From positions 1-64,000 of IMG/VR virus record IMGVR_UViG_3300020037_002731: a stretch of 64,000 nt of DNA; one strand, written 5' to 3'. This document shows positions 14,893-38,525 of the stretch, in pieces. The notes below the pieces were generated by a model. That model worked only from the letters and a program-made list of their open reading frames with translations. It did not search any database and was not told where the DNA came from. Both the position numbers and the translations under genes were made by a program. The DNA is from a virus. Its lineage: Duplodnaviria; Caudoviricetes. How positions within the stretch are numbered: the stretch's first letter is position 1; each line of letters opens with the position of its first letter.

Positions 14893-17800
14893 TTACTTGA
14901 TATGTTTGTATGAGGTACTTGAAAATTCCTGATAAGCTACACTTATAGAGGCGGGTAAAGCAGCTAATCCAGGAGTAGCTTTGGCTGCTGCAACTACTGT
15001 TTTAGAATATCCTTCATACACTCCTTTTTGATAAGTATCTTCTCCTCCACCTAAATAATTTATTCCATAATCAAATACATCTTTCAATCTTGTGTAAGAA
15101 GTAATTACAGGAATAGGATTTTTAAGAATATTAAAAGCACTTGTAGGAGAAGCAAAGAAGGTTAAATCCTGGAATATCCTATTAGTTGTATTAATAGCTA
15201 CATTTAGACCTTTATCATCATCTCCATCACCAGCAGCAGCTCCTAAAGCCATAGCTATACCTAAAGTCCATGCTGCAAGTCTTAATTCTCTAATATTAAC
15301 CATCATATTCTTAATATCAACATCTTGTAATCCTAAAGCTTTATATTCTGCTTCAAAGTCTTGACCTTTAAATTTTCTTTTAGCTGCATTAATATAAGTG
15401 GCTTCTCCTACCAATCTAGCTATAGTTTTAATTACTGGCACAACAGAATTAGTACTTCCTTTTTTATAAAATACATTAATATCCTTTACACTTAAAAATC
15501 TACCTTTAAAATTCTTATCTTCACTTTCTCTTCCAAACCTCTGATAAGCAGCTTGTGGCAACCATCTTCTAAAGATCATTAAAGCTCTTCCCCAAGCATA
15601 CTGATTTACATACAAAGGATTGCTGTAATCACCTTGAGTACTCTTTCTGTATTCATTATACTGATACAACCAATTATTTAATTTACTGTTAGGTGAAATT
15701 TCTTCAAAATTCTGTTCTCCATACTCTTTAGTATTGTAAGTAACTTCATCTTTATCATTTATTTGAATATAATCCCATAAAGTTCCTTCTTTTCCATCTA
15801 ATCTAGTTAATGGAGTATGCATCATTTTAGCTATAAATCCTTCAGAATGAATCATGTACTCACCAGAAGTCATTAAGAAGTACATAATATCTGTAAATTT
15901 GTTCTGTAAATCTCCTTCAAACTTATTAATACCACTTCCTAAAATATTATATTTATCTAAGAGAAGGGCTAATTTTTTAGCATCTTTACCTATACTTTTA
16001 TCTATGTTAAAAGCTTTTAAGATATTACCATAAATAACATTTTGTGCTCTTAATAAAGATTTATCATCAAAGTCTGTACCTTTAGCTGCCCATGCATAGT
16101 TATTTAATTTACCTATAATAAAGTTATTAATAGCTGAAAATGGCTTTAATCCTATACCCAATAACCTGGTATAATTGATTAATTTATCCATCCAAAAAGC
16201 AAATGTGGTATCTTCATCAGCCTTAGTTTCACCAAATATTTGAGATTTAATAGTAAATAAAGCTAAATCTCTTGCATTTTGTAATCCAGATTTAATCTCT
16301 TCTGGTTTTTCTTCTTTTATTATTTTACCATTACTATCTCTTTGAATTTTACCGTTAAGTAATTTAGGTTTATGTAAGGGAGTCCCAAACTTATTAGTTT
16401 TAATCTTAGGTCTTTCAGCTAATTTATCACTATATAGTTGTAAAGTAGGTAAAATCTTACTATTTTGATCATATACTACAGCCATTTCATAAAACTTAGT
16501 TAATACTTCAAATATATCTTCAGGCTTACTTTCCATAAACTTTTTAACATCAGGAGCTAGTACAAATGATATATCATTACCTTGACTATCTACTGCATTA
16601 AATGTTAAATTACTTCCCTCTTTAGCTTGAGTAAACCATTCTGTAAAGTTCTTACCTAATCCACCTAATAATCCTTTAATAGTAAAAGGATCTTGCTCAC
16701 TCATATCTAATGTAAATTCATTAAGTACTTTATCAAAATTACCTACATCAAAGGTCATTTTCCTAGGTACTAAACTTTGTGCTTGAATTATAGTATTTCT
16801 AATTAACAAGTACAATTCATCATCTTTAATTTTTTCATACTCTGGATTATCAAAAGTACTATTAGGCACTACAAGTAAATTTCTGTATCCTATTCTTTTT
16901 CTTACTCCAGGTACATAATGATTTGGATCAAGTTTAACTTCAGCTATATAATCTAAATAAGCTTGAGGAGAATTTTCTTGCTCAAATAAGTATAATTCAG
17001 CTTCAAATTGTGCTGGATTTTTTATTCTTAAATCCTCATTAATACTTAAAAAGTCTTGTAAGTCTTTTTCATACTTAGCATCTCCTACATCAGATCTTGA
17101 GTACACTGCATGTTTAATATACCAATCTCTTACACTTTGAAATGCTAAAGCCATTTGAGTACTAGTACTATTTGGATCTCTTATTACTCTGTCTTTTTCT
17201 TGATTAATTCTTTTTTCTTCTTCATAATAAATTGAAGTACTCTGTATTATAAATTTACCTTTACTATCAAAAAAGGTCTTTACTTTTTCTCTCCAATCTG
17301 GATTATTCTGCTTAACTCTAAATATAGTATCCTTGAGAGTACTTATTTGCTCATTAATTTTATTTTTAGCATAATTAAGCCACTTTGAAATTATTTGTAA
17401 TTCAGGTATATCTTTAGCTTCTGCTGCACTTAAAAACCATTTACCAAGTGATCCTATATCTCTTTTAGCTGTACTTGTAGGTTGATAAGTAATACCTACA
17501 CCTTCAGCTTCTTTATTACTAACTTTAATATTTACTGTATTGTATTTATTCTGTAAAGCTCCTAAATTAACTTGTAAATCACTTAATAAAGCTTTTTGTT
17601 CTGTATTTAATTCAGAATGTACTTTGTATATTTCAGTAATTAAAGTTTTAGAGTCTTCAATAATATTTTGGATGTACTTAAAGTCTTCTTGACTTTCATT
17701 ATCTAGTACTTCAATACCATTTAAAATAGTTCTATTTTGAGTATAAAGTAATGAGTAATATCCTTTATTTTCAAGCAATCTTTTAATACTATTTTCTACT

Positions 17801-19323
17801 ATAAGCATTCTCTTACTAAGAGTTTGCCTCTTAATAGGATCTCCTTTTTTATTTTGAGCTAATTCTTTTTGAATATTTCTTAGTCTATCTACTTGAGTAT
17901 TAATTAAAGCATCAAGTTCTGGAGTACTATCAAGTATTTCATCTGAATTATGTATTTCTTCAGTTTCTTCTACTAACCTCATATGTTCTTGCCATCCAGT
18001 ATCTCCTTCCTCCTCATTAGCTAATAAAAAAGGTTCTTCATTTTCAGATAATTCAAAGTCTTCTTCTTCTTCTTCTTGATATTCTTGAGATTCAGGAACT
18101 TGATTTAAACTTTCATTTTGTAATCTTTCATTTTCCAAGATATTAGTAGCAACACTAAAAGCTTGTTCATATAAATTACTAGCTTTAGTAATTCCTAATA
18201 CTTTAAGTAAGTAATCAAATATTTCTTCAAATAAATTCTTGTATTCTTTAACTCCAAATAAAGGAGGTATATTTTGTAAATCTTTAATGAATTTAGCATT
18301 AGTAAACAAAGCTACTAAAAATTCATACTCATCAGCTATTGCATGAGATTTCTCTAATTTACTTTTAGCATACTCAAATAATTTATAAAAATCTTGAGCA
18401 GTTTCATTACCTTTTAATTGATTATAAGATATTGAGTGTAAAATTTCATGTACTAGAGAATATTCAGATTGTCCAGATAAAGATAATCCAAATTCAGCTA
18501 TGTAAATTTTATTTTCTTTAGGGTTATAATAAGCTATACCTTTATCTGAATTAAGCTTTAAACTTTCTGATCTTTCAAAAGACTGTACAGGAACTAATTC
18601 TATTTGAACATTATTCTCTTCACTATATTTAATAAGATGATTAGCTAATTTGTTTAATACATGGTCTGACTGGGCTATTTTTTTTAACACATCAACAGCA
18701 TCATTAGTACTTCCTTGAGAGAAATATTTATTCCTTAACTCTGTATCTGGTATTGCATTATTTTTAGTTTCTTCTTTATTAAATAATATAGTTTTATTAT
18801 CTCTTACTGGATCTAAGGTAACTTCATTCCAAGTATTTCCATATTCATCAGTAATTAAAGTAGGATTAAATCCTTGCTTTTTAAGAATATCTGCTATAGT
18901 TTTATTATAAAATTTATGAATATTTTTAGATTTACTTTGAATTCCTTGATAGTGATTTAATTCAGCACTAATCTCTTGAGTATAGCTTTCAAGTGCATCT
19001 TCAAATGTTAAACCATGTAATACTGTAGGATAATTAGTTTTATCTCCATCAATAGTCCATTGTAATTTCCAAGTATCATCTGCTGTTTGAGAATATTGAA
19101 TACTTTTTATTTTATCCGCTACTCTTAATTTCTCACTAATTATCTCTTCTGCATTTAAAGCATCTTCTAATTTTTCTACTTTAAGTGAAGTATTTCCAGT
19201 AGGAAATAGAATTTTGGTGTATTTTTGAACAGTTTTTGGTTGAACCATAGTTGTTCTAACTAAAGAATAAAATTCATCTTTAGTATAATCTTTACCTTTA
19301 TATTTATATATACAGTTTGCCAT
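14893..19323 (-). CDS. Large virion cargo/ejection protein (1476 aa) with zincin domain
   Basis: HEILH at 18436-18450 with downstream EFLVAL. C-terminal GRALMIFRRWLP and a hydrophobic helix resemble crAss giant cargo proteins. Lies downstream of the vRNAP gene. Confidence 0.75.
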   Translation of the reverse strand: MANCIYKYKGKDYTKDEFYSLVRTTMVQPKTVQKYTKILFPTGNTSLKVEKLEDALNAEEIISEKLRVADKIKSIQYSQTADDTWKLQWTIDGDKTNYPTVLHGLTFEDALESYTQEISAELNHYQGIQSKSKNIHKFYNKTIADILKKQGFNPTLITDEYGNTWNEVTLDPVRDNKTILFNKEETKNNAIPDTELRNKYFSQGSTNDAVDVLKKIAQSDHVLNKLANHLIKYSEENNVQIELVPVQSFERSESLKLNSDKGIAYYNPKENKIYIAEFGLSLSGQSEYSLVHEILHSISYNQLKGNETAQDFYKLFEYAKSKLEKSHAIADEYEFLVALFTNAKFIKDLQNIPPLFGVKEYKNLFEEIFDYLLKVLGITKASNLYEQAFSVATNILENERLQNESLNQVPESQEYQEEEEEDFELSENEEPFLLANEEEGDTGWQEHMRLVEETEEIHNSDEILDSTPELDALINTQVDRLRNIQKELAQNKKGDPIKRQTLSKRMLIVENSIKRLLENKGYYSLLYTQNRTILNGIEVLDNESQEDFKYIQNIIEDSKTLITEIYKVHSELNTEQKALLSDLQVNLGALQNKYNTVNIKVSNKEAEGVGITYQPTSTAKRDIGSLGKWFLSAAEAKDIPELQIISKWLNYAKNKINEQISTLKDTIFRVKQNNPDWREKVKTFFDSKGKFIIQSTSIYYEEEKRINQEKDRVIRDPNSTSTQMALAFQSVRDWYIKHAVYSRSDVGDAKYEKDLQDFLSINEDLRIKNPAQFEAELYLFEQENSPQAYLDYIAEVKLDPNHYVPGVRKRIGYRNLLVVPNSTFDNPEYEKIKDDELYLLIRNTIIQAQSLVPRKMTFDVGNFDKVLNEFTLDMSEQDPFTIKGLLGGLGKNFTEWFTQAKEGSNLTFNAVDSQGNDISFVLAPDVKKFMESKPEDIFEVLTKFYEMAVVYDQNSKILPTLQLYSDKLAERPKIKTNKFGTPLHKPKLLNGKIQRDSNGKIIKEEKPEEIKSGLQNARDLALFTIKSQIFGETKADEDTTFAFWMDKLINYTRLLGIGLKPFSAINNFIIGKLNNYAWAAKGTDFDDKSLLRAQNVIYGNILKAFNIDKSIGKDAKKLALLLDKYNILGSGINKFEGDLQNKFTDIMYFLMTSGEYMIHSEGFIAKMMHTPLTRLDGKEGTLWDYIQINDKDEVTYNTKEYGEQNFEEISPNSKLNNWLYQYNEYRKSTQGDYSNPLYVNQYAWGRALMIFRRWLPQAAYQRFGRESEDKNFKGRFLSVKDINVFYKKGSTNSVVPVIKTIARLVGEATYINAAKRKFKGQDFEAEYKALGLQDVDIKNMMVNIRELRLAAWTLGIAMALGAAAGDGDDDKGLNVAINTTNRIFQDLTFFASPTSAFNILKNPIPVITSYTRLKDVFDYGINYLGGGEDTYQKGVYEGYSKTVVAAAKATPGLAALPASISVAYQEFSSTSYKHIK

Positions 19324-21257
19324 TATTGTTCAGATTTATTTTGTTGTGATTGGAGATATAATACAGCAGGAGCTATACTTAAAGTCATTTTATTAAATAG
19401 TTTAATAAAAGCGTCTTTATCTTTTATATAAGGCTCAAATCTACTAAATACTGTATTACCATTTTTAATAGCTTTTTCAAGTTTTTCAGGTGTCAATATT
19501 TCATTATAATTTTTTATAACACCTGTGTTTTTTAAATCTTGTCTTAAATTAGTAGATAGAAATGCCCAAGTTTCAGTAGGTCTTGTAACATAAGACAATT
19601 CATCTTTAATAGTCTCTTCTATAGTTTTATTAGTTCTAAAAAGCCCTTTATCGCTACGTTTAAAATCTGATTTATATAAACTATTTGAAATTTCTTTAGC
19701 TTTTAAAGCTTTTGTTTTATCTACTTCTTCTAAATTTTTTACAAATATATTAGAAATATCATCTTGTAATTTTTGCGAACTATCTATAATATTTTTATTA
19801 ATATCGTGTGAAAGCTCATGCCAAACTATGGCATCATAATCTTCTATACTAGCTTTTTTATTAATATAGTTTATACTACTTTCTGATAAATCTTTTTTAA
19901 ATGTTTTATCTTTAGATAAAAAATTAAGCATTAAATCTTCTTTTTTAAAAGTAGAAACTCCCATAGCATCAACTATATCATCTTTAAATATTTCTTCCCC
20001 TGCTACTTGAAATCTATCATTTTTACCTATGTTATTTCCATAATCCCATCTTTTTTCAGATTTTTTATAAGCATCTAACAAATCAATATTATATTCATCC
20101 CCAAACTCTTTTAATCTTTTTAATGATTCAGGATTATCTAACTCTTTAAAATAAGCATTACCTTTTTTAACAATCTCCATATTTTTTCTTTCAGTAGAGG
20201 ATATGTTTTTTAAAACATCTTCGATTTTAAAATCTAAAGGTATTTGTTTTAATTTAGGTAAATTTTTAACTGCTTTAGTAGCATCTATTACTTTATCGGC
20301 TTTAGACAGTTTTCCAACTAATCCCGCACCTACTAAATTTAAAGGGTCTGTAATAATATCTTCACCTATATTAGCATTATTTTGTTTACCTTTTAAAGCA
20401 TCTTTAAACGAATAATTATCTTTATAAGCAGATTGCACCATTTTAGAAGGTATACTTAATGGTTGTAGTATGTTTAAAGGATTATCTTCTTTCTTAGCTT
20501 CCTCTTGTGATAATGATGGATTTTTAAAAGCAACTGGACTTCCTGCATTTCCTACACTTAACAATCCTTGTTCAAATTTACTCCAAATAGAAGGTTCTAT
20601 TTTACTTGAATAACTACTGTTTTTAATAAGCTCTAATTCTTTTTGAGTAAATCCTTGTAATGTTTTTAATCTATCATTAGAATAATCTGTATCAAAGGTA
20701 GGTTTTCTTTTAAATATATTTTCTACTACTTTATCATTAATTCTTTTATCATATTCTGCAACATTATTAGGATTCATATTTGTAGATGAAATACCCATGC
20801 TTCTACTAAATTTAGGCATAGCTTCATCTATAAATCTATCCTTACTATATTCTTTTTCAAATTGTCTTTTATCTTTTAACCATTGTGGAGCTTCTGCTGT
20901 TATAACTACTTCTTTTAAAGGTGTAGCAATATAAGTATCAGAATTTTTATCATAGCTCGTTAACTTCCCACTATTATACAAATCTCTATATTCAGGAGAA
21001 CTTATATCATATTCTTTAATTTGGTTATCCTGATTAACTTTTACTTTTTTATTAGGAGGATAAACACTACCATCACCCGCATATTGACTTGTAACAGGTA
21101 ATGTTTCTACTAAACTATCTATACAACCATGACAACCTTCTGATAGTTTTTGTTTAACCCAATTTCTTTTATTTGCAGGAATTATTACTTTATCTCCATT
21201 AGAATTTTCAAGTATTAATTCATTATGTTCCGCTTCTACGTTTATATTTTTATACAT
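19323..21257 (-). CDS. Virion-associated protein (644 aa) with C-terminal zincin metallopeptidase
   Basis: IVWHELSH followed by YVTRPTETWAF. N-terminal VEAEHNEL..NS.GD.VIIP...GCHGCIDSL module. Confidence 0.7.
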   Translation of the reverse strand: MYKNINVEAEHNELILENSNGDKVIIPANKRNWVKQKLSEGCHGCIDSLVETLPVTSQYAGDGSVYPPNKKVKVNQDNQIKEYDISSPEYRDLYNSGKLTSYDKNSDTYIATPLKEVVITAEAPQWLKDKRQFEKEYSKDRFIDEAMPKFSRSMGISSTNMNPNNVAEYDKRINDKVVENIFKRKPTFDTDYSNDRLKTLQGFTQKELELIKNSSYSSKIEPSIWSKFEQGLLSVGNAGSPVAFKNPSLSQEEAKKEDNPLNILQPLSIPSKMVQSAYKDNYSFKDALKGKQNNANIGEDIITDPLNLVGAGLVGKLSKADKVIDATKAVKNLPKLKQIPLDFKIEDVLKNISSTERKNMEIVKKGNAYFKELDNPESLKRLKEFGDEYNIDLLDAYKKSEKRWDYGNNIGKNDRFQVAGEEIFKDDIVDAMGVSTFKKEDLMLNFLSKDKTFKKDLSESSINYINKKASIEDYDAIVWHELSHDINKNIIDSSQKLQDDISNIFVKNLEEVDKTKALKAKEISNSLYKSDFKRSDKGLFRTNKTIEETIKDELSYVTRPTETWAFLSTNLRQDLKNTGVIKNYNEILTPEKLEKAIKNGNTVFSRFEPYIKDKDAFIKLFNKMTLSIAPAVLYLQSQQNKSEQ

Positions 21258-21261
21258 AATA

Positions 21262-22344
21262 TTAATTTTTAGGAATTACTAAACCATACTTTGCTGTAAA
21301 TTGAGTATTACCATTTTTAATACTAACCCCATCTTTACCAATAGTTAAATCTATTCCGCCTTCTTTGTGTGTAGGATAGCCTTTTAAATCTTTAATTACT
21401 TTCCATTTACCTCCTTTAGTAAAGGCTGTAGCTAATCCTTTTTCAGCTTTTAATTTACCTTTGCAATCTATTTCAAGTAAACCTTCTTTTTCTAACTCTC
21501 TTATTTTAGCTTCTACATCAGATTCTTGTACTTCTGTAACTGTTTGTTTTGCAGTTGATTGTATAATAGATTTAACAAAGAATGTAACCCAGTTTGAATC
21601 CTTATTAAGTAACTGTAAAAATGAGCTTTGCTTAAAAGATTCATCATATTTATTATGAATATCTTGTAATTTATTTTCAAGTGTATTATTAAATTTCTTA
21701 TACCAATCTTCTTGAAATTTATTAAACTTTTCATTAGTTCCTTCTGAAATACCTTCTTCATATGGTCTTACTCCATATTTCTTCTCAAATTCATCTCTTA
21801 GAGTATAATGTTTATCTATTCCGCCATCTTCAGTTAAAAGATTATAGTTTTCATTAAATAAATTTACTATTTCAGGAGTTAGATTAATAGTTCCAATAAG
21901 TTTACCATTAACAGATTTTCTATATCTTACTTCTTGTAATTGTCCAAAATCAAAAATCTTTTGGTCTGATAAGTCAATATCAGGTTTATCACTAATTTCA
22001 TATACATAAAAAGTTCCTGTTTGAGGATGATTAGAAGCACTCCAGTTACCCATTAAGGCTGCTCCAATAGATTTACTCGCTGAGGTTTCAGGTATTTGAG
22101 ATTTCTTAAATCCACCATATTTAGAGGTAACTAATCTATGTTTACCTTCATAATCTTCTACTTGTTCAGTAAAAGAAGTGGGTAAAAATCCAGTTTCATT
22201 TCCTAAATCAACATTAACTACTCTGTAAAACTTATTAGGTTTTGATACAAGAGATTGCTTATTAGCTAATGGTTTAGCAATTTGCTCTACAAATTCTTCT
22301 TTAGAATCATAGGTTACTCCTTTATATATATACTTACACGCCAT
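21262..22344 (-). CDS. Polyvalent cargo-type protein (360 aa) with possible ADP-ribosyltransferase-like domain
   Basis: FYRV / ETSASKS / LQEVRY spacing. Also NWVTFFVKSIIQ segment and C-terminal THKEGG motif. Confidence 0.6.
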   Translation of the reverse strand: MACKYIYKGVTYDSKEEFVEQIAKPLANKQSLVSKPNKFYRVVNVDLGNETGFLPTSFTEQVEDYEGKHRLVTSKYGGFKKSQIPETSASKSIGAALMGNWSASNHPQTGTFYVYEISDKPDIDLSDQKIFDFGQLQEVRYRKSVNGKLIGTINLTPEIVNLFNENYNLLTEDGGIDKHYTLRDEFEKKYGVRPYEEGISEGTNEKFNKFQEDWYKKFNNTLENKLQDIHNKYDESFKQSSFLQLLNKDSNWVTFFVKSIIQSTAKQTVTEVQESDVEAKIRELEKEGLLEIDCKGKLKAEKGLATAFTKGGKWKVIKDLKGYPTHKEGGIDLTIGKDGVSIKNGNTQFTAKYGLVIPKN

Positions 22345-23063
22345 TATCTATTATGTTTTTTAAAACTTCTATTTATTTGTTGCACTCCAGATTTAGAAAT
22401 CCCATATAAAGGAGCTATTTCCTTATACATTTTACCTTGTTTTATAAGCTCAATTATTTCATTTCTTTGAGCCTCTGTCAATTTTTGTTTAGGAGAAATC
22501 TTATTGGTTCTTCTGGTTAAATGTTTTTCTTCCTCTTTTACAATATAATCTGGAATATTTTTCCAACTTCTATGAGCTTTAATTTCAGATATTGTAGTAA
22601 TACCTACTTTATACTTTTCAGCAATTTCTTTCAAAGAGATATTAAAGGCAATCATCTTCTTAATATCATAAATATCTTCTATTGGTATTTTAGAATTAGT
22701 TTGTCCTTCATTATAAAGCTTAATTCTTGTCTTAGACATTTTATCAATAGTAGAAGAATCAAATTCTACACAGTCTCCTCCTGTAGTTAAATTTAATCCA
22801 TTAATATTATTACCTCTAAAACTGTCAAATTCCTTAACATATTTCTTTTCTAAAACATTAAGTTCCTCTCTTGTAAAATTTCCCTTTTCAACAATTTCAA
22901 AAGAATGATTTTCTACTCCATGTTTTAAAAAAGACCTATATAATAGAATTTGAGCCTTACAATTTAATTCTTTATATCTGTTAAGTCTATATTCAACATC
23001 TTTAGATTGTCCAATATAGATTTTATTAGTAGGGGAAATAACTTTATAAATTCCTGATTTCAT
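22344..23063 (-). CDS. Free-standing GIY-YIG homing endonuclease with C-terminal HTH repeats
   Basis: SGIYKV...IYIGQS...R...Y...E...NGLN. True start is likely MKSGIY at 23063, because the ORF-track start lies upstream of the promoter. Confidence 0.9.
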   Translation of the reverse strand: MKSGIYKVISPTNKIYIGQSKDVEYRLNRYKELNCKAQILLYRSFLKHGVENHSFEIVEKGNFTREELNVLEKKYVKEFDSFRGNNINGLNLTTGGDCVEFDSSTIDKMSKTRIKLYNEGQTNSKIPIEDIYDIKKMIAFNISLKEIAEKYKVGITTISEIKAHRSWKNIPDYIVKEEEKHLTRRTNKISPKQKLTEAQRNEIIELIKQGKMYKEIAPLYGISKSGVQQINRSFKKHNR

Positions 23064-23082
23064 TTTTAGTATATTTGAACTA

Positions 23083-23114
23083 CAAAGATACAACATTAAT
23101 TTGTAATTTCCAAA
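23083..23114 (-). promoter_or_regulatory. Bacteroidota sigma70-type promoter driving the GIY-YIG gene
   Basis: TTTG-gaaattacaaattaatgttg(20 nt)-TATCTTTG. Confidence 0.8.
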
Positions 23115-23132
23115 TTTTATTGAAAAAAGTTA

Positions 23133-24563
23133 TTAACATTCTACTTTAAGTTCTCCACTTTTCTTTAATTGTTCAATAATAGCTTCTACATTACCTAAAT
23201 TTCTTCCTTTTTGGAAAATTTCAGATTGTACTTCTAGTATTCTACGGGTTTTAGGATTTCCTTCTAGTAAGTCAGATAAATATCCTCTTGTACTAATAAC
23301 TTTAGATTTATCAACTTTAGCTACAGTATCATCTATATCAGATTTCCAATCTTCAAAACCATAAGTAGCTCCTCTTGCATCAAATCTTTTCTTAAACTCA
23401 TCTTTAGGTATAGTAATTACTTTATCAAAGTCAGACATTCTTTCTTTAAGAATATTAGTGTTTGAAACAAATAACCTTTTACCTTCTTTTTTAGCTTGTA
23501 ATTTTAATCTATCAAATAGATTAAGCATAAATTCATTATACTCTTTAGGTTTTCTACCTTTATATTCTTGTCTTGTTTCAGAACTTCTATTAGTATCTAT
23601 AAAAGCAATTACTTCATTTGCATAATCATCATCTAAACTAATAAAATCATTATTTCCTTTTTGTTTTAAATAACTTTTACCAATAGTAGGATGTCCAAAT
23701 ATTATTTTATCATTTTTTGTTATAGGATTATATTGAGCAGTTTCACTGTTTAAAAAATCATCTTCTTCTTTCCAACCAACTATTTTGTTTTCTTTATCAT
23801 CACTTCTAAACCATCCAATACCATTTTCAGTACTAAATTGAGCATGTCCTTTAATACTTGGAATAATATCAGGAATTCTTATTTCATTTTCAGTGTAATT
23901 AGTACCTCCTGGAACTGTTAGATTAGAGTAATAGGAAGTAGGCTCACTATATAAATATTCTTCTTCTCCATATTCTTCTCCAGTATCTATATCTCTAAAA
24001 GAAGATTTAGTACTTTCTTTATTTAAAGCAGTATTAATTTCAACACTATATCCATAATTAGCTAATAAAGAAGCTATTAATTCTCCTTTACTCATACCTT
24101 CAGAGTAAGTATCTTTTAATAATTGAATTTGTTGAGAACTTGCACCTTTAAGATCATTTAAAAATCCTTGAAAGTTCTTACCAGGCTCTCTAACTTTATT
24201 GGAGCTAAGTAAGTCTATTATTCTTAAAGAATAATTAACTTCATCTGAATCTTCTACATTAGCAAATAATACTCCTTGTAGTTCTTTAGATACTGGTAAT
24301 ACATCAACACTTAACTTATGCCTTCCTGGAGCTTCAGTTTGAATACTAGCTACTTTAGCACCTAATTTCTTATTAGTACTTGATACAAAATTATAAGCTG
24401 CCTGAATATTATTTTTCAGGGTGTATAATTTGTTATTGAATTTTCTAAAAGCTTTACTATCTACAGCATCTTGAAAGACCTGTACATGAATTTCTGATAA
24501 CCTTTCTTTTTCAGTTTCAGAAATTTCTTCTTTTTCTATATAATTAAATTTACAGTTTACCAT
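23133..24563 (-). CDS. Polyvalent cargo-type protein (476 aa) with an inserted P-loop kinase-like domain
   Basis: YSNLTVPGG...GHAQF...GWFRSDD, Walker A GHPTIGKS (23673-23696), RRILEVQSEIFQKGR. Confidence 0.7.
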   Translation of the reverse strand: MVNCKFNYIEKEEISETEKERLSEIHVQVFQDAVDSKAFRKFNNKLYTLKNNIQAAYNFVSSTNKKLGAKVASIQTEAPGRHKLSVDVLPVSKELQGVLFANVEDSDEVNYSLRIIDLLSSNKVREPGKNFQGFLNDLKGASSQQIQLLKDTYSEGMSKGELIASLLANYGYSVEINTALNKESTKSSFRDIDTGEEYGEEEYLYSEPTSYYSNLTVPGGTNYTENEIRIPDIIPSIKGHAQFSTENGIGWFRSDDKENKIVGWKEEDDFLNSETAQYNPITKNDKIIFGHPTIGKSYLKQKGNNDFISLDDDYANEVIAFIDTNRSSETRQEYKGRKPKEYNEFMLNLFDRLKLQAKKEGKRLFVSNTNILKERMSDFDKVITIPKDEFKKRFDARGATYGFEDWKSDIDDTVAKVDKSKVISTRGYLSDLLEGNPKTRRILEVQSEIFQKGRNLGNVEAIIEQLKKSGELKVEC

Positions 24564-24566
24564 TTC

Positions 24567-27500
24567 TTATATTGTTACACAATTTGGGATTTGATCATAT
24601 TCTTCTTGAGTAATATTTCTTAATTCATCAGGTTCTTGTGGAATACTTTCATAATCTATAAAATCATCTAAATCAGAAGTATTATTAGAACTTAGTACAA
24701 ATACATTATTAGTAGCTCTTGACATACCTACATATTTAAGTTGCTGTCTTAATTCTAAATCTTTAAATGCATCAATAGTATCTGCTAACAAAAGTACTTT
24801 ATTATAAGTTCCACCTTGAGATTTATGTATAGTATGTGCATACCCATAATCTAAAGTTTTCTTTACAATGTAATTACCAGTTTGATTTTTTAAATCTTTC
24901 ATAAAGGCTAATTGACTTTGTAATTCTCTAGCTCCAGCAAACATTTGTGCTGCTTTCTTTCTGTTGCCAGTCTTCATAGCTATTGCACCTTCTTTATTCA
25001 TTGCTTCTACTTTCTGTACAAATTTAAGTACTTTATTAGGATCTTCAGTATTATCTACAATAAATACATACTTATTACCATCCTCTGAATTTAAAGTATT
25101 TTTAAGTACAACCTGGTATCCAGAATAACTTTCATTGATACTACCAATTTGTTTATTACTCTTTTTAGCACTAAGTACTTCATAATCTCCAGAATTAATA
25201 ATTAATGGTTCTCCAGTATTATAATCTATATCAAAATTATCATATCCCATTAATATATCTCCAGGTACTAATTGTTCATTAGTGTTAAATAATATTCTTC
25301 TAACTAAAGTATTGTATTCTTTAACTATTTGATTAGTACCAGATAAAATTCTAAAGAATAACTTATTCTGTTTAAAATTATCAGAAGTAAATGCTGCACT
25401 AATTATATCATTAGCTTCTTTAGTACTATCCATGTACTGTACTCCAATTCCTTTCTCATTAACTTTACTAGTATAGGTAAAGTCTTTTCCATTTCTAAGG
25501 TTAGTACTTTCTTCAAGTATAGCATTATCTCCAGTTCTTTCAACTTTAGTTAATTGAATTTGTGGATTTTGATTAGTACTAAATACTTTACTAATATTTT
25601 TCTGTCCTACAGGTTTAATTTGTCCCTTATCCCCTACATAAATAACCTTAATATTGAGTTCTTGTATTTTCTTTTGAATAAAATCATACAAAGAATCTGA
25701 TACCATACTACTTTCATCAATAATAAGTAAATCTCCTCTTTGGATTTTAACTTTATTTTTTTGTGCAAATTCAAGATCTCTAATATCATAGTTACCTAAT
25801 TCATCAAGTCTAATATCAGGAGTTAATCCAAATAATTTATGAAGAGTAAGAACTCTAGCATTAGGATTATTAAGCTTAGTTACTGCATTAGCTCTATGTG
25901 TAGGGGCAGTATAATAAGGGTATCTATGTTGAGAAGATAAGTACTTATCAAATAATGATATTAAAGTAGTTTTACCAGTTCCAGCATATCCTGATAAAGT
26001 AATTTCTTTATTACCAGAATTCATGAACTCTTCAAGCTTAAGTAAAGCTTTTCTTTGTTCATTATTTAAAGCAAATGGTAAGTACAATTTATATCCACTT
26101 TTAAAAGTAAATTCCATTGGATTACCTTCAATAATTTCTGGCTCTTCTTGGATATTTGGATTAGGTAATATCTCTTCCTGTACAGTTTTTTCAGATTGTG
26201 TAATTGGTCTTATAGAATACACAAATCTACTTTGATTTCCATTTACAAAGTTTGAACTAAACTTATTATTTATTGTAAAATCCTTCCAATGCTCAAATCC
26301 TTCATTTTTTGCAAAAGTATTAAGATCTTGAGATATTCCATTAATTTTAAGATCTATTTCTGCACCTTGTTCATCATTAGCATATCCTTGCAAGTACTCA
26401 ATTTTTGCTTCTCCTATTAATTTAATTTCAATTAAAGTCCCATCTGGAAGTTTATGAGTACCCTCTGATAACTTTTCTTTTCTTATTGTAGTTGTTTTAG
26501 TTCCTGATTTTATTTTCTCAATATTATCAGATTGCATTGGTAAAGATAATACTTTTTCTGGAGATTCCAAAACTTCAGATCCTTCAATTCCTTGAATTAT
26601 TTCTGGAGAAAGAACTATAGTTTCTTGATCTTCTGGAGAAATTTCAAATCTTTCTTCAGGTATTTCTTCTTCATTTGTCTTAGGTTCTGGATCTCCTTGA
26701 ATATCTTTGTATTTTTTGCTTAATTCATCACTAAGAGCTTTATTTCCCTCTGGAGTATTAATCCAAGGTTTTAAGTACTCATTACTATACAATTCTATAC
26801 TAAATCTGTACTCATGTACTGGTTTGTACTCTTTAGGTAAGGAATCTTTATTAACATTAGATCTGTAATTATTAGAATTACTTATGTAGTTTCTAATAAA
26901 TTCATTCTGCAATTCTGCTGAAGTTTTTCCAGTTAATTCTTTAATAACACTTTCACTAGGATTACTTTTAGCTAATTCAGTATTTAGTTTCTGTAAATTT
27001 TGAGCTAAGTTTCTTAACATTTGAACTGGAATAAATCTCATAAATGAGTTATTTCCAAATTCCATGTTATTCATAGCTGCTTGATAATTCAATAAATCTG
27101 TAGCAAATTGAGCTATTTCAGGATTACTTGAATGATACATTTGATTAATACTATCAATAAATACCTCACTTAATTCTTTAGTAGGAGTTGTAGTACTATC
27201 AAATTTAAGTATATGTAAGGGAGTAGTATTACCCTTATCTCCAGGACTTAATGGTTTTAAGTACTTAATGAATTTATTCTGTTTAAATTCAGGATACTTA
27301 AGTAAATTCTTAAACTTAGTTGTAATTAAATCTTCTGAAGTAGTATCTTTTAATTGAGTAACTAATCCTGCAAATTTTACATTAGGGTTTAGTGCTTTGT
27401 ACACTTTCATCTGTAAATAAGTACTTAAATTAGCTCTTACTTTAGGAGTATTTTTAAAAGTACTACCTTTAAGTAATGATAAAGTTTCATTCTGAATATT

Positions 27501-30500
27501 CCTAAACATTTCAGTTTCTTGCAAAAATAAATTTCTAGCAATATCAAGTACTTTTCGTAGATTTCTTACATTATTAACAATGTTCTTTTCATTTTGAAGT
27601 AACTTAACTGTATCAAATGGATTAGGTATTGGATTACCATTTTTATCTAATTTAGGAATAGTTAGTTCATCATATGAATTTAAGAAACTTCTTGCAGTAT
27701 CAAATGAAGATCCAATAATTCTGGTTAAAGTATTAAGTCTTGATACATTAAAAGCAAAACTACTTATTTGTTGTGCTTTTATGTACATTCTTAAAGCTTT
27801 TACTTGAATCTGTAAGAACTCTTGAGAGTTTTGATCCATTTCTAAAGCATCCCATAATTCTTTACTAGTTAAATTATTAGGCACTTCCTTATTCTTAAGT
27901 TTACTCATGTAATCATTAAGCAATGGAGCTAATTCTCTAGGTTTTAAGCTTCCAGCTTTAACAATAACAGGTTGTACACTTAAAGGAGCATCACCATCTT
28001 TAATATTAATACCTAATTGATTTAAGTAACTAAATATACTTACACTTCCTACAAGCCAATGAAATGTACTAGCCATTGGATCTTTACTATTATCAATAGT
28101 AGTACTTACCTTTTCAGAACTATAGTTATTTTTAAGGTAAGTTACATCATCAGGAGTATTAAATGTCTTATAAGTTTCTCCATTGAATTGTATATAAAAC
28201 TCTGGATTTAAATCAACTCTATTCTTAGTTAAGTTAGCTCCAGTACTTTGAGCTAGTACAGCACTTCCTCTTAAAGTAGTACTTGCAGTATTATCATCCC
28301 AAGCTTTAATAAGACCATCTGGTGTAAAAATATTGTAAGTAATTTTATCTGTACCTAGTATCTTTTCTATTTTCTCTTTACTTTCTTTAGTATCATCAGT
28401 TGTACTAGCTTGTTTAAAATACTTCTCAAGTTCAGGCTGTTGCATTACTTCTTCTAACTTAATAATAAGCCTGTTATTTAAAGCACCTTGAGATTCAGGA
28501 CTTCCTTTTAGTATAAAATCATCTAATGTTCCAGGAAGATTAAATTTCTCAAGAACTTGTCTTGCTGCATAATCTCTAAGATCATTAATATCTTCATACC
28601 TTTTTTGTAAAGCCTCTTTTAAGTCTCTTCTAGTTTGTTTAAATAACCACTCAAAAGAATCTTTATCATCAATGTACCATTCATTAATTTTTCTTTGAAG
28701 TTTTAACTCTTGTACCTCTTTAAGAATTTTATCATATCCTAGTTCAGTTAAAGTTTTACTTAACTCTTTCTTTACATCTAGATTATTATTTAAATACCAA
28801 TCTCTGTACTCTTCCCATTTATCTTCTGTTTCTGTAGCATCTCCATAGTATTGCTTACCATGTCTTTCTTTACTAAATATAAATAAACTATCATCATCAA
28901 AGTCTTGTCCTGCATACAAAGTTAATTGTGGAGCAGCTATAACTATATCTCCCATGTAATCAGGTAAAATATCTACTATCTTACTTCTTCCCATGAAGTT
29001 ATAACCTTGAGTAGGTACTCTAAGTGAAACTACAGTATCTCCTATTTTTAATCCTAATCTTTTAGCAGTGTACCCTGAAATAACAATTTCTCCTACTGGA
29101 TTACCATTTTCCCAAGTTACTTTTAAATCTGATACTGGATAATCATTGTACTCATCACTATTTCTTTGTGAGCTAGGTATTACTTCTCCATTCTCATCTC
29201 TAATAGTCTGATATATGATAGGAGAACCCATAGTTAATTTAGCTCCACCTAATTTATGTTGAAATGCATCCTTAAATCCAGATAAATATATCTGTTCTAA
29301 CTTCTTTCTTGTATGTGCAAGATTTAAAGTGTATTCAGGAATTCCAACAGTATCTCTAAGAAGTTCAATCATTTGCATATCAGAAGTAGTCTCCTCTATA
29401 ATATCCCTATACTTTTGAAATACATAAGATAAATCACTCTTTAAATTTCCTTGTTCATCAATTAATTGTGAACTTAAAAAATCAAAAGTATTATTTCTTA
29501 ATTGTACTTGAATATCTTGAATCTCTTCTTTTAATAGATTATTTTTTTCATTATCTAATAAACCAAAATCTATTAATTGTTGAATTTGAGTTAGCCAAGG
29601 TACTCTAGTCTTATCTTTACTCTCCTTTAGTACTTGTTCTCTTCTGTACTTTCTAGGTACTTCATATATTGTAGGATTTTCTCCTGTTATTGGAGTACTT
29701 TTTCCAAAGAATATTTTAGCTGCACTTTTAGGTACAATTAAATCTGCATTATTATTTTGAAGTAATTTCCACCTGTTAAATCCTTGTTCTTGACCTTTCT
29801 TAGCTACCCATTCTTTACCATTCCAATATCCAGTATCCCAGGGAGTTAAAGTATAGATACTCATTTTATAGTACACTCTATTACCTAAAGTATCAAATCC
29901 AGCAGTTACATGCTTTTGAGATACAAGATCTAATGATTGTATTTCTTCTCTAGTCAAAGATACTGGATTTCCCTCTGCATCTAATTCCTCTCCATTAAGT
30001 TTCTTTAATGCAAGTTTTTGCAATTCAGTTAAAGTACCTAAAGCTTTTAAATCTTTAAATTTACCCCTAGGACTTTGAAATACTTGAGCATCATCAGGAT
30101 TTATAGGTTTCTTATAAAACTTCTTAGCTTCTTCACCTTCTGGCTTAGTCCATTGTACTTCTCCACTTTCAATATTAACCCAAGCTTCAGTATTTTCTGT
30201 ATAAATAATCTTATCATTTCCTTCTCCCATATCTTTACCACTAGCATTAAGAGAACTTTCTCTTTTAAATCTTTCAGAAAATAAAGCATTATAACTCTTT
30301 TCCCAAGTACCTAAATCTATGTACTTAAGTTGAGATAGATCTCCTTCTGTTAATTGTTGTACAGCAGAGTTATTAATAAGATTATTTAAGAAGAATTGAT
30401 ACAAGTATTCCTCTGTAAATTCCATTCCTTTAACCTCATGTTTCTGTATTTGAGAAAGAATATCTGCCTGGATAATAGGAAGTACAACACTTTCAAAGTG

Positions 30501-33500
30501 AGTATTAATATCAGCTTGAGTCTTAATTTTTTCAAATATTTCAGGATGATTATTAATTACTGGTAAGTATAACCATATTGGTACAGTTACTTTACCATAA
30601 TCTCCTTGTAATCTCTTGTATTCTTGAGTAAATAAGTTCTTTAAAGCTTGTATTCCATCAGCACTAATCTTTCCTTCTTCATACAAGTTTCTAAATGGAA
30701 CTGTAACTCCATAAAAAGATCTTTTATCACCTATAATACTAGGAGCAGTTATGTAGTACCCATTTTTATCTCTATTCTGAAATAATCCATGAAGTACTCT
30801 AAGTACATCTTGAGCATCAGAATCTTTGTAAGTTTTACCTTCTTCAAAAGAATTATCTCCTATGTAAAATATCTCCAAGTTTTGGAATCTTCCCTTTATT
30901 AAATCTGTATTATCTCCAAATAAGAAATTATTAAATTCCAGGTATTCTCCTTTCTTAGTACTTACTTTTATATTTTGAAGTGTTTCATATTTTTCAGATA
31001 ACTCTTTTAATAATTGTGAATAACTACTATAAGGTACATAAGTGTATCTATTAGTGTTATCTGAAGCTCTATAATTAGGAATAATAAAGTTCTTACTAAA
31101 TTGAGCATTAGCATTAGCTATTGCTAATAATCTTCCAGATAAATTACTATCTAAGAAAGGATTTCTTATTTCTGTACTTTCTTTTGAATTACCAGTATTT
31201 TTAAATAAAATATCTTGTAACTTAATTAAATCTGCACTAGTAATATCTCCCTGTTCATTCTTTATAAGTTCTCTAAGTACTAATGAATCTTCATCTGTAT
31301 TATCAAACATTACTTCTAAATAACTTTCTTCTAATTCAATACCTAAAGAATTAAATATCTTCTTAACTACAGTACTTTTATGTAAATTTCCTTTAATAAC
31401 ATTACTTCCATCAACAACCCATTTATCTGATACAGGTTTATCTTCAAGGAAAGGTACTAGATTTTCTAAATTGTATTGAAGATCTTTTCTGAATTTTTCA
31501 TCTTGTAATAATTTATCATCTATTACTAAGCTATAATTAGTACTCCAATTATCAAAAGTATAAATTCCAGCATCATGTTTATTAGTTTTCTTAACAAGTA
31601 CTTTCTTATCTTGAGTAAATACTGTTACATAAGGTAATCTAGCTAACTTGAATTGATTAACAAACCTAGTTAAAAACATTTCATCCTGAAAAGTAATTCC
31701 TTGAGGAGTTTCTTTGCTGTATTTTTTTTCTGTATTTAATTTATTGTATAAAGCATTAATTTCAGGATTTTTAGTTCCTAAAGCTTTAATTGTACCAAGT
31801 ACTTTATTAGCATCTTGATTAGTTAAAATACTAAGAAGTTGATTATATACTCTAGGAAAATTTACAGCAGTTTCTATTTCTTTACCATAGAAATTAACAG
31901 TGTAAATACTACTAGCTATGAAAGTTTTAATTTCAGAAGATACTCTATCTAGTGTATTTACTTCAGAATCTAATCTATCATACTCCTTCATATCCTTATC
32001 TACATCAGTATCAAAGTTTTCTTCTTCTTCTGTAATAGGATTATATCTTAAATATTTTAAATATTTTTCAGCTTCACTTTGAACTAAAGCTTTATTATTT
32101 TTAATACCAAAGTTATACTTCTTAAATAATTTCTTTAGTTGATCTTTCTCAAACTCTGAAGTTTTAGAATTAATTAAAGCTAAATTAGATTTAGAAAAAG
32201 GATTGTATTCTTCAATTAAATCATTTATAATTGTATTGATACTCTTAGTATTATCTAAAGAACTAGCTTTAGCAGTAATTAATGCTATTAAGTTTCTGCT
32301 CTCTTCAGCACTTAATCCACCTACTAATTTAGCTTTAACAAAGGGACTAATAGGATTACTTTTATTAATACTTGAATTTACAAAAGCTCCTCTATCAATT
32401 TTATTGAATAAATCTATTGTCTTTACATTACCTGTAAAGAAATTAATAATACTGTCAAATAAATCAAATATAACTTTTTTCCAAGGTTTAGGTTGATTTA
32501 ATTCTTTATTATTTCTCTTATCTGCATACTCATCTGATAATTTTTCTTCAAATACAAGATTTTCAATATCTTTTCTTGAAATAATTTTATCCTTAAGTAA
32601 TTTAATTAAATCAGGTCTTTTGCTTAAAAGATCTTGTACTTCTGAATTTAATTGTTCAGGACTGTAATTTAATTCTTTACTTTTAGCTTTTAAGTATCTT
32701 TCTTGTTCTTGAGGACTTAATACAGTACTAAATACAGCATGGAAAGCTTCATGATCTACATCAAGATAACCCATTTTTTCTGAAATATATACTGCATTAT
32801 CTCTATAAAATCCTACAGGAATTCCAATTACATTCAACTGATCTAGTACTCTTTCTATTCTTTCTATACTTATTCCTGAAGGAATTTGAGATAATAACCT
32901 AGCTCTAATTTCATCATAAGTTTTAGGTTCTGAACTTAATTGAGATTCATCAGTGTAAATTTTAGTTTTATTAAAGTCTTTATTACTTTCATTCCAATCT
33001 CTAATTAATTCTTGAATTTCTTCTGGAGTGTATCCTGCTACAATAGCACTATCTATTATATCTTGAAGTTCTGAAGAGTATTTAGATTCTACTTTAGTTT
33101 CTTTAATATCCTCTTGTATTTCCTTTGTTTCAGTAGTTTCTTCAGATATTTTTTCTTCTTGCTGTTCATTAATAGTTTCTTGATTTAAAACTTTAGGATC
33201 AAATTTAAACAATAAAGTATAGTTCTTTAGTACTTCAGGGTTAACTCTAATACTAAATTGATCAATACTAGCATTTGTAGGATCAATACTTTGTCTAAAA
33301 GAATTTTCATCAATTTCTTTAATCTTATTTTTAATACTAGCATTAATAAAATTAATAAGATCTACTTCAGTCCAATTAGTTATATCAGGTAAAATAGTTC
33401 TATTAGTAATCTTATTTCCAATACCATACCCTAAAGCTAGCTGCATTTTATTGCCAGCTTTATCATTATGTACAAATTTAATTACATCTCCTGGTAGTGA

Positions 33501-36500
33501 AGCTATCCAAAAGTTAATATCATTGGTAATTAAATCAGCTTGTTCTCTTGTAATATTAGGATTAGCATCAATTTTAGCTTTAATGTCTTTAATGTTCTGT
33601 AAAAAATCAGTACTTGGTATTGGTTTAGCTTGAATAGGTAACCATCTTCCTAAACCATTAATAAGTTTAGCAAATACAAAGAATGATTTTCTAAATCTAT
33701 TATCTTTATGAAATTCATACTCCTGATCTGATAAGAATGGAATACCAGTCATATCTTTACCATTAATACTTTGAGTTCTAGATACTTCAGATACTATAGG
33801 AGAATCTTTAAAAGCACCTTCAAATAATGTAGAATCTAGATCTATAGAAGGTTCATCCCTTGGTATCCATGATACTTCTCCACTTAAATCAAAATCTACT
33901 GCTCCTTTAGGTAATGGTACTTCTGGTAAATTTTGAGTACTAAACCACTTAACTAAATCATCATTAAATCTCTTTAATAAATCCCAATTAGCTTTAAATG
34001 TATCAAGTTCTGATTGAGTAAAAGGTTTACTTCCTAACTTTTCATCATAGTTACTAAATACTCTATTAAATTCAGTTAGAGTCCATTTAGCATCATTAAA
34101 ATCTATAGTAACTCCATTAGCATCTACAAATAAATTAGGATTATTTATTCCAGTAATATTTCTTCCTTCTTCTGGTACTTCTCCTGTTTCTGGATCTGTA
34201 ATATCTAAAAGAATATCTATATCATATCTACCTTGGAGTTTAATTTCTTTATTTCCAAATAAAGTTCTTTGACCATTTTTTTGTTCTTCTTCAAGATTAG
34301 CATTAACTTGTGATTTATTTACTTTAATACTAACATAATCTTTCCAGTTAGGAAGTTTAGCTATTTTATTAATTAATTCTTTAGTTTTAGCAGAAAATCC
34401 TCTATTACTTGCATACCCTTGAAACCACATTCTAGTAAAATGGTTTTCTCCATAAAGTACTTGCTTAGTTCCTTTATTAATATTAGTTTTACCTGGCTCA
34501 TAGTACCCATTTTCTTCAGTATAAGTATTACCTTTTTCATCTTCCCATACTCCTTGAGGATTTACTTTTACTTTAATTTTACTTCCAAGTACTCCTTGTT
34601 TTTCTATTGTAATATCAAAAGAGTCTGTAACTATAGGAGGTTGAGGAGGAGTAGGTGGTGTTGGAGGTTTTTCTTCAACCTTTACTTCAGGTTTAGGAGG
34701 ATTTTGTTTAGTTTCAATCTTTTCTAAGTTCTCTTTAATACCTTTCTCTGAAGTTAAATCATTGTAAGCTTTAGTATATATCTCTCTTCTTTTATTTAAT
34801 TTAATAATATCATTAACACTTTCTATTAAATGTTTATGATGTACTGGATTAGTATCTTTAATTTCCTGATTTGTAGCTTCAATATATTCTTCTTTACCTT
34901 TTTTATCCAAGGTATTAAAATAAATATTATTAAAACTAACTCCAAAAGAATTTAAATCAGCATTAATCTTTAGTATTCTATTATTAGTATTATCTAATGA
35001 ACTAGCAGTATGAGTAGCTAAGTTCTGTAATTCTTTAAAAGTTAAGTACTTAGCAGTATCTTTCTTTTGATCATAAGGATTAGGTAAATTTAGTAGTACT
35101 GCATCATTAACTTTCTTAATATTATTAATTTCTTTAACTAAAGAATTTATAGTATCATTACTGTCCCATCTTTGAGTATCTGCTATAGTAACATCATTAC
35201 CAAAAACTTGATTTAATTCCTCTGCACTAGCATTTTTTAATGAATTAACTCTATCTATTAAAATACCTAAAGTTCCAGCTTGTAAATTCTGTTGAACTAA
35301 AGATACTATAGAACTATGTCTATCATTGAAATAATTAAATTTATCTCTGTTAGTTATAGCCTCATCAGCTAATTGTTGATAAGTTAAAGTTCTATCAGTT
35401 TCTAATAACTTATTTTTCATAACCTCATTTAATTGAGGTAACATCTTATTAGCAAAATCTAACTGAAATTTCTTTCTTTCAGCATCACTTTTAGCATTTC
35501 TAAAATGTCCTAAAGTTCCTGCACCACCACCTATTAAACCTCCAATTACAGTACTTTCTAGCCCTTCCTTGGTAGTTAATCCATCATACAAGGCTTTACC
35601 TATACTTTCAAATATATTAGCATTATTACCATTGTACTTATTATCTAAGTAATCATTAATGGCTGCATTACTAGCAAACTGTAAATATTCTTGACCTCCT
35701 TCTGTAACAATACTTTCAGTTACAGGATTTTTAACTTTTCTAAAAGCTTTAGCATACTTACTTCCAGCATCTTCTATTAATTTACCATCTTTTAGTACAG
35801 TCTTAAGTCCTGCTTCTACATCATTAGCTCCAGGTCTAATTAAATTCTTGAAGATAAAAGTATTAGTAGGAGCTAGTACTGCCATGTTAATAGCAAAGTT
35901 AGCTAAACTACCAGAGTTAGCTATTTCTTCTTTTTGAGCATCACTTAAATCATTTCTATCTTTTAATGTTTCAAGAATTTGATCTTTAGTTTGTCTAGCT
36001 TCTAAGGAACTTTCCATAGTAGCCATAATAGTACCTAAAGTTAATTGAGCTTTAAGATTAGGACTTATTGTATTAATACCTTTACTAGCTGCTTGTACTG
36101 CTGCTTCAGCATCTTTAAATTTAGTTCCTACTGAAGCTGCTTTACCTAAATTAAAAGCTTTAGTTAATGCTGCACCAGTTAAAAAACTTCCTGCTGTATA
36201 ACCAGCACCACTTAATAAAGCATCAAGAAAATGTCCTGAAGCTAAGTTTTCATAACTAAAGAAATTACTATCTTTTTGAGCTTGTGATTGATATACTTTA
36301 AAAGTATCTTGAAACCAGTTATTAATAGGATCTACTACTCCTCTGGATATTTCATTATCAAATATTTCAGATAGTCCATTTACATAAGCAGTTTTAGCTG
36401 ATTTACCTTTAGTCAATTCATCTATTTGTACAAATGGAACTTTTAAAGCTCCATAAAATATAGCTGGAATTTCTAATGCTGCATTTAAAGCACTACCAGC

Positions 36501-38524: not shown

Positions 38525-38525
38525 A

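Follow-up and report, generated by a model that had tools for sequence, protein, structure and literature searches.

In the 64-kb stretch of DNA that we analysed (the window), which is part of an 84-kb crAss-like phage record, a polyvalent cargo protein that relatives encode in a single open reading frame (ORF) is broken into three genes. At each of the two breaks the upstream fragment carries a short C-terminal peptide and the downstream fragment a short N-terminal peptide, both with a cysteine (Cys). The protein is split, its fragments are collinear with the unsplit form, the peptide pair is portable between positions, its placement is strictly terminal and Cys is found at termini only. We propose from the sequences that the two peptides together make up a portable connector for split sites, in which a disulfide probably locks the halves, and we put the probability of this reading at roughly 55%.

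One cargo protein, three genes

The six genes considered here are consecutive on the minus strand. The virion RNA polymerase protein (4068 amino acids (aa); 24567-36773) is followed by P0001 (476 aa; 23133-24563), P0003 (360 aa; 21262-22344) and P0005 (1476 aa; 14893-19323), the first, second and last fragments of the split polyvalent protein. P0005 also holds a zincin motif, HEILH, at 18436-18450 and a C-terminal membrane-type region. P0002 (250 aa; 22344-23096) fills the first gap between fragments, and P0004 (644 aa; 19323-21257) lies in the second.

The first-pass annotation had proposed that segments of the three fragments are consecutive parts of one domain in the same gene order, and comparison with single-ORF homologs bears this out. 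We collected 72 related loci (with handles such as L004) by an IMG/VR search with P0003 and then placed pieces of the window proteins on them by tblastn. For about 60 of these loci, residues 1-257 and 438-455 of P0001, 238-272 of P0003 and 35-185 of P0005 fall in one frame and in this order, in a single ORF of about 1800-2500 aa directly after the polymerase gene. Single-ORF homologs show four conserved blocks with hypervariable inserts between them: block 1 (IKGHAQFATDxGIGWFRSD), block 2 (RRILEVQSDLFQKGR), block 3 (FLQLLNKDNNWVTFFVKSIIQDSAKKGYEKVLFPSGNTASKVE) and block 4 (FYENTVxNILKKQGYxPxxVTDEYGNTWNE). In the window, P0001 holds block 1 (IKGHAQFSTENGIGWFRSD; 23799..23855) and block 2 (RRILEVQSEIFQKGR; 23202..23246), P0003 the first half of block 3 (FLQLLNKDSNWVTFFVKSIIQSTAKQ; 21544..21621), and P0005 its second half (YTKILFPTGNTSLKVE; 19174..19221) together with block 4 (FYNKTIADILKKQGFNPTLITDEYGNTWNEV; 18820..18912). 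Mapped on the ORF of L062, residues 102-257 and 436-455 of P0001 correspond to 47-213 and 240-259, residues 239-264 of P0003 to 278-303, and residues 25-398 of P0005 to 298-651.

The first break falls in a variable insert between blocks 2 and 3. The second cuts inside block 3, between ..SIIQSTAKQ and YTKILFPTGNT, a point that an AlphaFold model places in a short helix-strand loop; across it block 3 is uninterrupted in the unsplit homologs (..SIIQDSAKKG directly followed by YEKVLFP..).

A P-loop NTPase-like domain (IIFGHPTIGKS; 23274..23726) stands as an in-frame insert between blocks 1 and 2 of P0001 and is found at this place in few relatives only (L004, L016, L032 and L046). Residues 36-230 of P0003 (21655-22239), which have no Pfam or PDB sequence match, are an in-frame insert in L003 and occur elsewhere in L006; proteins related to them carry ..FPDSKVKDIVYHG(S/T).. 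motifs.

The host domain (18820-23855) is widely conserved in crAss-like cargo proteins. Neither it nor the peptides at the breaks matched a family in Pfam, PHROGs or PDB sequence searches with P0001, P0003, P0004, P0005 and the single-ORF homologs. Its AlphaFold model, with a predicted local distance difference test (pLDDT) score of 66.9, suggests a long helical hairpin insert and gives weak GNAT/FemX-like leads: the best Foldseek rows are GNATs at a weak E of ~0.7, and in VIA 9dsb_A reaches Z 7.7 (root mean square deviation (rmsd) 4.5, 114 aligned) and FemA/FemX reach Z 7.3-7.4 with poor rmsd. Among INPHARED phages P0003 had no match, and P0001 matched through its P-loop insert only.

Chain genes are spaced 0-4 nucleotides (nt) apart or overlap as TAATG (24563-24569, 21257-21264 and 19323 in the window; 5999-6003 in L083). 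This tight spacing suggests that translation of the genes is coupled and that the fragments are made in equal amounts.

Judged by its matches to Pfam PF01541 (GIY-YIG; 25.6 bits against a cut-off of 22.6), HTH_7 (25.7 bits) and phrog_5123, P0002 is a free-standing GIY-YIG homing endonuclease with a C-terminal helix-turn-helix, and it is predicted to cleave. Its likely true start is MKSGIYK at 23062, and its stop codon overlaps with the start codon (ATG) of P0003. The roughly 60 single-ORF relatives lack the gene, and L004 has another type of endonuclease.

A portable peptide pair at the breaks

The upstream half of the pair (C-motif) is about 22 aa long and consists of an amphipathic helix, G-x-L and a short strand with Cys at its end. 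Its downstream counterpart (N-motif), of about 34 aa, has M-x-Cys, a beta-hairpin x-Y-x-Y-K-G-x-x-Y and a helix. At the first break the C-motif (NLGNVEAIIEQLKKSGELKVEC; 23136..23201) ends P0001 and is followed by TAA TAA, and the N-motif (MACKYIYKGVTYDSKEEF...; 22243..22344) starts P0003. At the second, the C-motif (TVTEVQESDVEAKIRELEKEGLLEIDC; 21463..21543) lies in P0003 and is followed after Cys294 by a beta-rich tail of 66 aa that ends the protein (KGKLKAEKG...AKYGLVIPKN; 21265..21462), and the N-motif (MANCIYKYKGKDYTKDEFYSLVRTTMVQPKTVQK; 19222..19323) starts P0005. The sequences that the first-pass annotation had quoted are all found on the minus strand where it had placed them, namely the polymerase end IPNCVTI and the P0001 start MVNCKF, the P0001 end VEAIIEQLKKSGELKVEC directly before the stop codon (23136-23189), VEAKIRELEKEGLLEIDC in P0003 (21463-21516; 9/18 identity to the P0001 end) and the starts of P0003 and P0005, MACKYIYKGVTYDSKEEF and MANCIYKYKGKDYTKDEF. 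A six-frame scan of the whole window found both motifs at these places only, and a search of the whole 84-kb record found the N-motif at P0003 and P0005 only.

Wherever a locus has a break, the upstream ORF ends in ..(I/V)xxxLxKSGxLx(I/V)xC with 0-1 residue after it, the downstream ORF starts M-A/S-C-K-Y-I-Y-K-G-x-x-Y-x-S-K-E-E-F, and both Cys are invariant. The junctions of L082, L083 and L057 are less conserved: of the upstream motif the terminal Cys alone remains, with at most two residues after it. Unsplit homologs have neither peptide and no Cys at the break sites, where their sequence is unrelated and hypervariable. The motif residues are extra relative to these homologs, which argues that the pair belongs to the break and not to the host. 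We also considered a native internal subdomain merely cut by the endonuclease and rejected it, as the unsplit homologs are unrelated there and we found the N-motif nowhere in an internal position.

The pair occurs at no fewer than six host-protein positions in other phages. It lies between blocks 2 and 3 in the window, L004, L006, L008, L016, L038, L064, L069 and L073, between blocks 1 and 2 in L071, L084 and L091, inside block 3 in the window, L004 and L005, in the N-terminal region in L084, and before an ART-like domain in L085, and database proteins show further positions. An endonuclease gene in the gap, as in P0001 / P0002 / P0003, is seen also in L004, L006, L008, L016, L038, L064, L069, L071, L073, L084, L085, L089 and L091, and at least five GIY-YIG lineages occupy it. 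Every evaluable ORF with an N-motif has a Cys-tipped partner upstream. In the related loci the N-motif stands at the ORF start (14/14), and the C-motif is always at or near the ORF end. Absence from unsplit homologs, the spread over positions and the terminal placement together uphold the earlier suggestion that the pair is a reusable unit tied to breaks.

To this we can add a search of 1.84 billion representative proteins with a 35-column N-motif profile (A1; E<=1e-3), which returned 173 matches. Among the matches listed, 144 of 150 start within residues 1-8, so that the N-motif is essentially N-terminal only, and the remaining 6 of 150 are Cys-rich repeat proteins. The true matches (n = 142), some of them tiny proteins, all have Cys at position 3-4 (once 7-8), and internal Cys amounts to 0.032% in them; in 60 of the 142 a second Cys stands among the last seven residues, in many cases as ..L..SGKIEKKC, and 6 end in the beta tail.

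The C-motif variant, the type of endonuclease and the N-motif variant change together. When the window is compared with L004, the flanking P-loop and beta-tail segments are 100% identical, and across the first break the C-tails are 73% and the N-motifs 68% identical and the endonucleases differ. This co-change argues that the pair, with or without an endonuclease, acts as an exchangeable cassette.

Exchange as a unit would also be expected if the motifs were passengers of the endonuclease, either a co-converted flank or its recognition site, and the fragments came together again through the split domain's own interfaces, as in other genes in pieces. In line with this explanation, the motifs directly flank several GIY-YIG lineages, and the DNA of the first nine N-motif codons is strongly conserved in these AT-rich genomes. 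We nevertheless consider it unlikely. The pair occurs without an endonuclease in L082, L083 and L057, where the gap is empty, and at the second break of the window; in L082 and L083 the amino acids are kept through many synonymous changes. Both Cys of the pair are invariant. Moreover, the rule of a Cys at both ends, described below, applies at junctions that have neither endonuclease nor motif.

A second type of cassette consists of the C-motif Cys, the beta tail of about 66 aa, a P0004-type gene and then an N-motif. We observed P0004-type loci in the window (19323-21257 and 21265-21462), L069 (5194-7190), L085 (1-1618) and L089 (4434-8001). Common to the P0004-type genes is an N-terminal module of about 70 aa (MYKNINVEAEHNELILENSNGDKVIIP..CHGC; CHGC at residues 42-45 of P0004), and the ORF before them always ends in the beta tail (..GGxDLxIGKxG..AKYGLVIPKN). 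The C-terminal part is variable: zincin-like HELSH in P0004 (residues 480-484), for which a structure-atlas row points to SprT/IrrE-like zincins, YkuD in L089, and in L085 a weak, sub-threshold peptidoglycan-binding match. The beta tail and the P0004 module may be another docking pair, one by which cell-wall enzymes branch off sideways from the chain. The two gap genes had been described as foreign. The 644-aa gene is not clearly so, given its conserved module and its constant place after a beta tail, and looks from these features like a second kind of attached cargo module.

Elsewhere, a protein of 66 aa, P0113, is made up of N-motif, linker and C-motif, and sits between a P0004-type gene and an endonuclease gene. 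In a model of its monomer the N-motif folds as a beta-hairpin plus helix (pLDDT ~80), and the Cys tail is unstructured alone.

Cysteines at the ends of the chain proteins

On sequence evidence, the motif pair is an elaborated form of a wider terminal-Cys rule of the Crassvirales. The four chain proteins (6380 aa) contain 6 Cys, compared with about 61 expected at the window's 0.95% (Poisson P ~4e-19), and all six are at termini or in motifs. The polymerase has its sole Cys in the C-terminal tail IPNCVTI (24570..24590), four residues from the end; P0001 has two, Cys4 (MVNC) and its last residue, and P0003 two, Cys3 and Cys294; the sole Cys of P0005 is in its N-motif.

The related loci have Cys on both sides (last seven residues upstream, first seven downstream) at 77/106 non-redundant large-ORF junctions (Fisher P = 2e-8), the exceptions being chain starts, chain ends and neighbours of endonuclease or P0004-type ORFs. 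Internal Cys in these loci is 0.036% over 308,607 aa. The rule has a polarity, the first chain protein lacking an N-terminal Cys and the last a C-terminal one: in the window the polymerase starts MGFPTT, and P0005 ends without Cys, which marks it as the chain end. Fused ORFs keep the terminal Cys only, with one Cys each in L012 (6234 aa) and L007 (4285 aa), located right at the C-terminus or 6 residues short of it. The pattern is also present in cr55_1, cr124_1 and crAss001, where gp47 ends in ..ALRCNS, gp50 starts MSKRC and ends ..KICGANTLYEL, and gp49 starts MAKKC with its sole Cys. This polarity is more in keeping with hetero-pairing at each junction than with self-cyclisation, homodimers or a link to a third component.

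It is conceivable that the N-motif is instead a signal for packaging or ejection order carried by each fragment, and that the terminal Cys bind metal, portal, scaffold or DNA and not the neighbouring protein. The strictly N-terminal position of the N-motif agrees with such a role, and capsid-targeting N-terminal peptides are known from internal proteins of phage T4. A signal of this kind leaves unexplained the matching Cys peptide at the upstream C-terminus, the polarity at the first and last proteins and the loss of both Cys in fused ORFs, and we regard it as improbable.

Several disulfides are present in crAss001 virions, whose three polymerase-associated proteins are believed to have similar copy numbers (PMC10172136). 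The terminal Cys and the motifs described here are not mentioned in that crAss001 atlas (PMC10172136), the N4 ejection paper or the polyvalent-protein paper, and we found no literature description of such a connector or of a terminal-Cys chain in Crassvirales.

Several observations touch on the limits of the chain. The 583-aa and 940-aa proteins encoded upstream of the polymerase (36773-41348) have no Cys at all, which places them outside the Cys chain. Both giant genes of cr124_1 (L001, 22-14123) contain many in-frame stops under table 11, which fits stop-codon recoding; the terminal Cys pair is present there, yet the proteins are not depleted of Cys. The ORF after the last chain protein in L032, L048, L050, L060, L063, L067 and L068 belongs to another family that starts MNxxC and has more Cys at about 10, 18, 28 and 49, a Cys-rich N-terminal module unrelated to the connector.

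A docking model and its relation to known systems

In our model the connector pair comes with the break whenever a free-standing gene, most often one for a GIY-YIG homing endonuclease and at times a P0004-type module, interrupts the polyvalent cargo protein. The C-terminal strand of the upstream fragment would pair with the N-terminal hairpin of the downstream fragment by strand addition, and the adjacent Cys would form a disulfide later, in the particle, once it has left the reducing cytoplasm. This would give a single thread, polymerase - P0001 - P0003 - P0005, which is packaged and ejected as the one-piece polyprotein of the relatives is and which separates again in the cytoplasm of the host. 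Ordinary junctions seem to need no more than a few residues around each Cys; at breaks that cut a domain the Cys is set within the pair of about 55 aa.

A number of points weigh against this model. Each side offers one Cys, a metal site would require additional ligands, and the chemistry of the pair, whichever it is, is putative. The co-variation of the motifs cannot be separated from shared ancestry with these loci. Conservation of the first nine N-motif codons as DNA implies that part of the conservation of the motif may reflect an endonuclease target site. P0004 lacks a terminal Cys, which leaves its place in the chain unexplained. Finally, the two ends are not brought together in the P0113 monomer model, which is uninformative as a proxy for docking.

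The Cys pair could also serve protein ligation, by a minimal trans-splicing like that of split inteins or by an enzyme, regenerating one polypeptide. The upstream piece has Cys at its end, the downstream one in many cases starts M-x-N-C, resembling the Asn-Cys junction of inteins, and the motif residues are missing from unsplit homologs. Such ligation is nonetheless very unlikely. No Hint or intein family matched at E<=0.1, and about 55 aa in total is too short for a Hint fold, judged from the sizes of split inteins. The upstream Cys is at the end of its peptide and not at the start, P0003 lacks the Asn, and the downstream motif (starting M-A-C) runs on into the host protein with no ending at Asn. 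On its anatomy, with no Hint or intein match and a C-motif of 22 aa whose last residue is Cys, a split intein proper was rejected.

Least credible of all is removal of the breaks at the level of RNA or translation, by a self-splicing intron, ribosomal bypass or stop-codon recoding, to give one protein: introns and recoding have been reported in crAss-like phages and cr124_1 has the in-frame stops mentioned above, but P0001 ends TAA TAA, the reading frame changes from one ORF to the next, in relatives as in the window, no Rfam match was found in 18800-24800 at E<=1, and only about 36-70 nt separate the P0001 stop from the endonuclease start, with 0 nt after the endonuclease. A group I intron with a homing endonuclease was rejected because of the same Rfam result and the space available (at most ~70 nt upstream, 0 nt downstream).

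If the connector pair does dock, it would show how the giant injected polyproteins of the most abundant order of gut phages tolerate gene splitting, with cut cargo still packed and ejected in order. It would also answer the question raised by the crAss001 structure paper of how interactions between cargo proteins set the order of extrusion, add a class of 'self-healing' endonuclease cassettes, and provide a natural pair of peptides, about 55 aa in total, with which proteins could be joined head to tail in a redox-reversible way. The terminal-Cys rule is testable in the cultured phages crAss001 and phi14:2.

Among known systems, polyketide and non-ribosomal peptide synthases have docking domains, short terminal peptides that include beta-hairpin types and order separate modules. 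The connector is unrelated to them in sequence, and they have no Cys clasp, no link to mobile genes and no place in virion cargo. Genes in pieces are reportedly found in Aeromonas phage Aeh1, where mobE splits nrdA, and in T4, where genes 39/60 are said to be associated with mobA and a bypass element. There, as here, a gene is split by the insertion of a homing endonuclease and its products still cooperate, and in T4 the endonuclease and the 'healing' element form one mobile cassette. Unlike the breaks described here, those are healed by native interfaces or ribosomal bypass, without dedicated docking peptides.

A solved example of the proposed chemistry is the pre-ejectosome of cyanopodophage A4, in which a C-terminal helix of gp27 docks into gp26 with a disulfide Cys1715-Cys5 (PMC12002296). 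One ejection protein is thus bonded, by a Cys close to its C-terminus, to Cys5 of the next. The precedent is limited to A4, a podophage called unrelated, with a single junction, no portable motif and no gene split.

The plain terminal-Cys chain of Crassvirales, as in gp47/gp50/gp49 of crAss001, is the type of chain seen at the polymerase/P0001 junction of the window. The internal breaks differ from it in that their Cys belong to a conserved pair of about 55 aa, at many positions and often with an endonuclease, and that in the window this pair divides a single folded domain.

Fractured genes, in which split inteins have a free-standing homing endonuclease between their halves (Dassa et al. 2009, PMC2677866), show a similar layout. 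In both, a break divides a conserved phage gene, the gap holds a free-standing endonuclease gene, the layout is portable, and the ends carry extra peptides missing from unbroken homologs. The peptides differ in that they are not halves of a Hint fold (~55 aa, no intein blocks), and the pieces are presumably clipped together and not spliced. Tentatively, and at somewhat less than even odds, we suggest that the connector pair is a further way for a mobile gene to heal the gene it breaks, beside introns, inteins and the T4 bypass element. It would travel with free-standing homing endonucleases, allow cuts through a folded domain, and have the fragments re-tied as a disulfide thread that is released in the reducing host cytoplasm. 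Taken together, the connector is closest to fractured genes, with docking peptides replacing the split intein, on top of a terminal-Cys chain.

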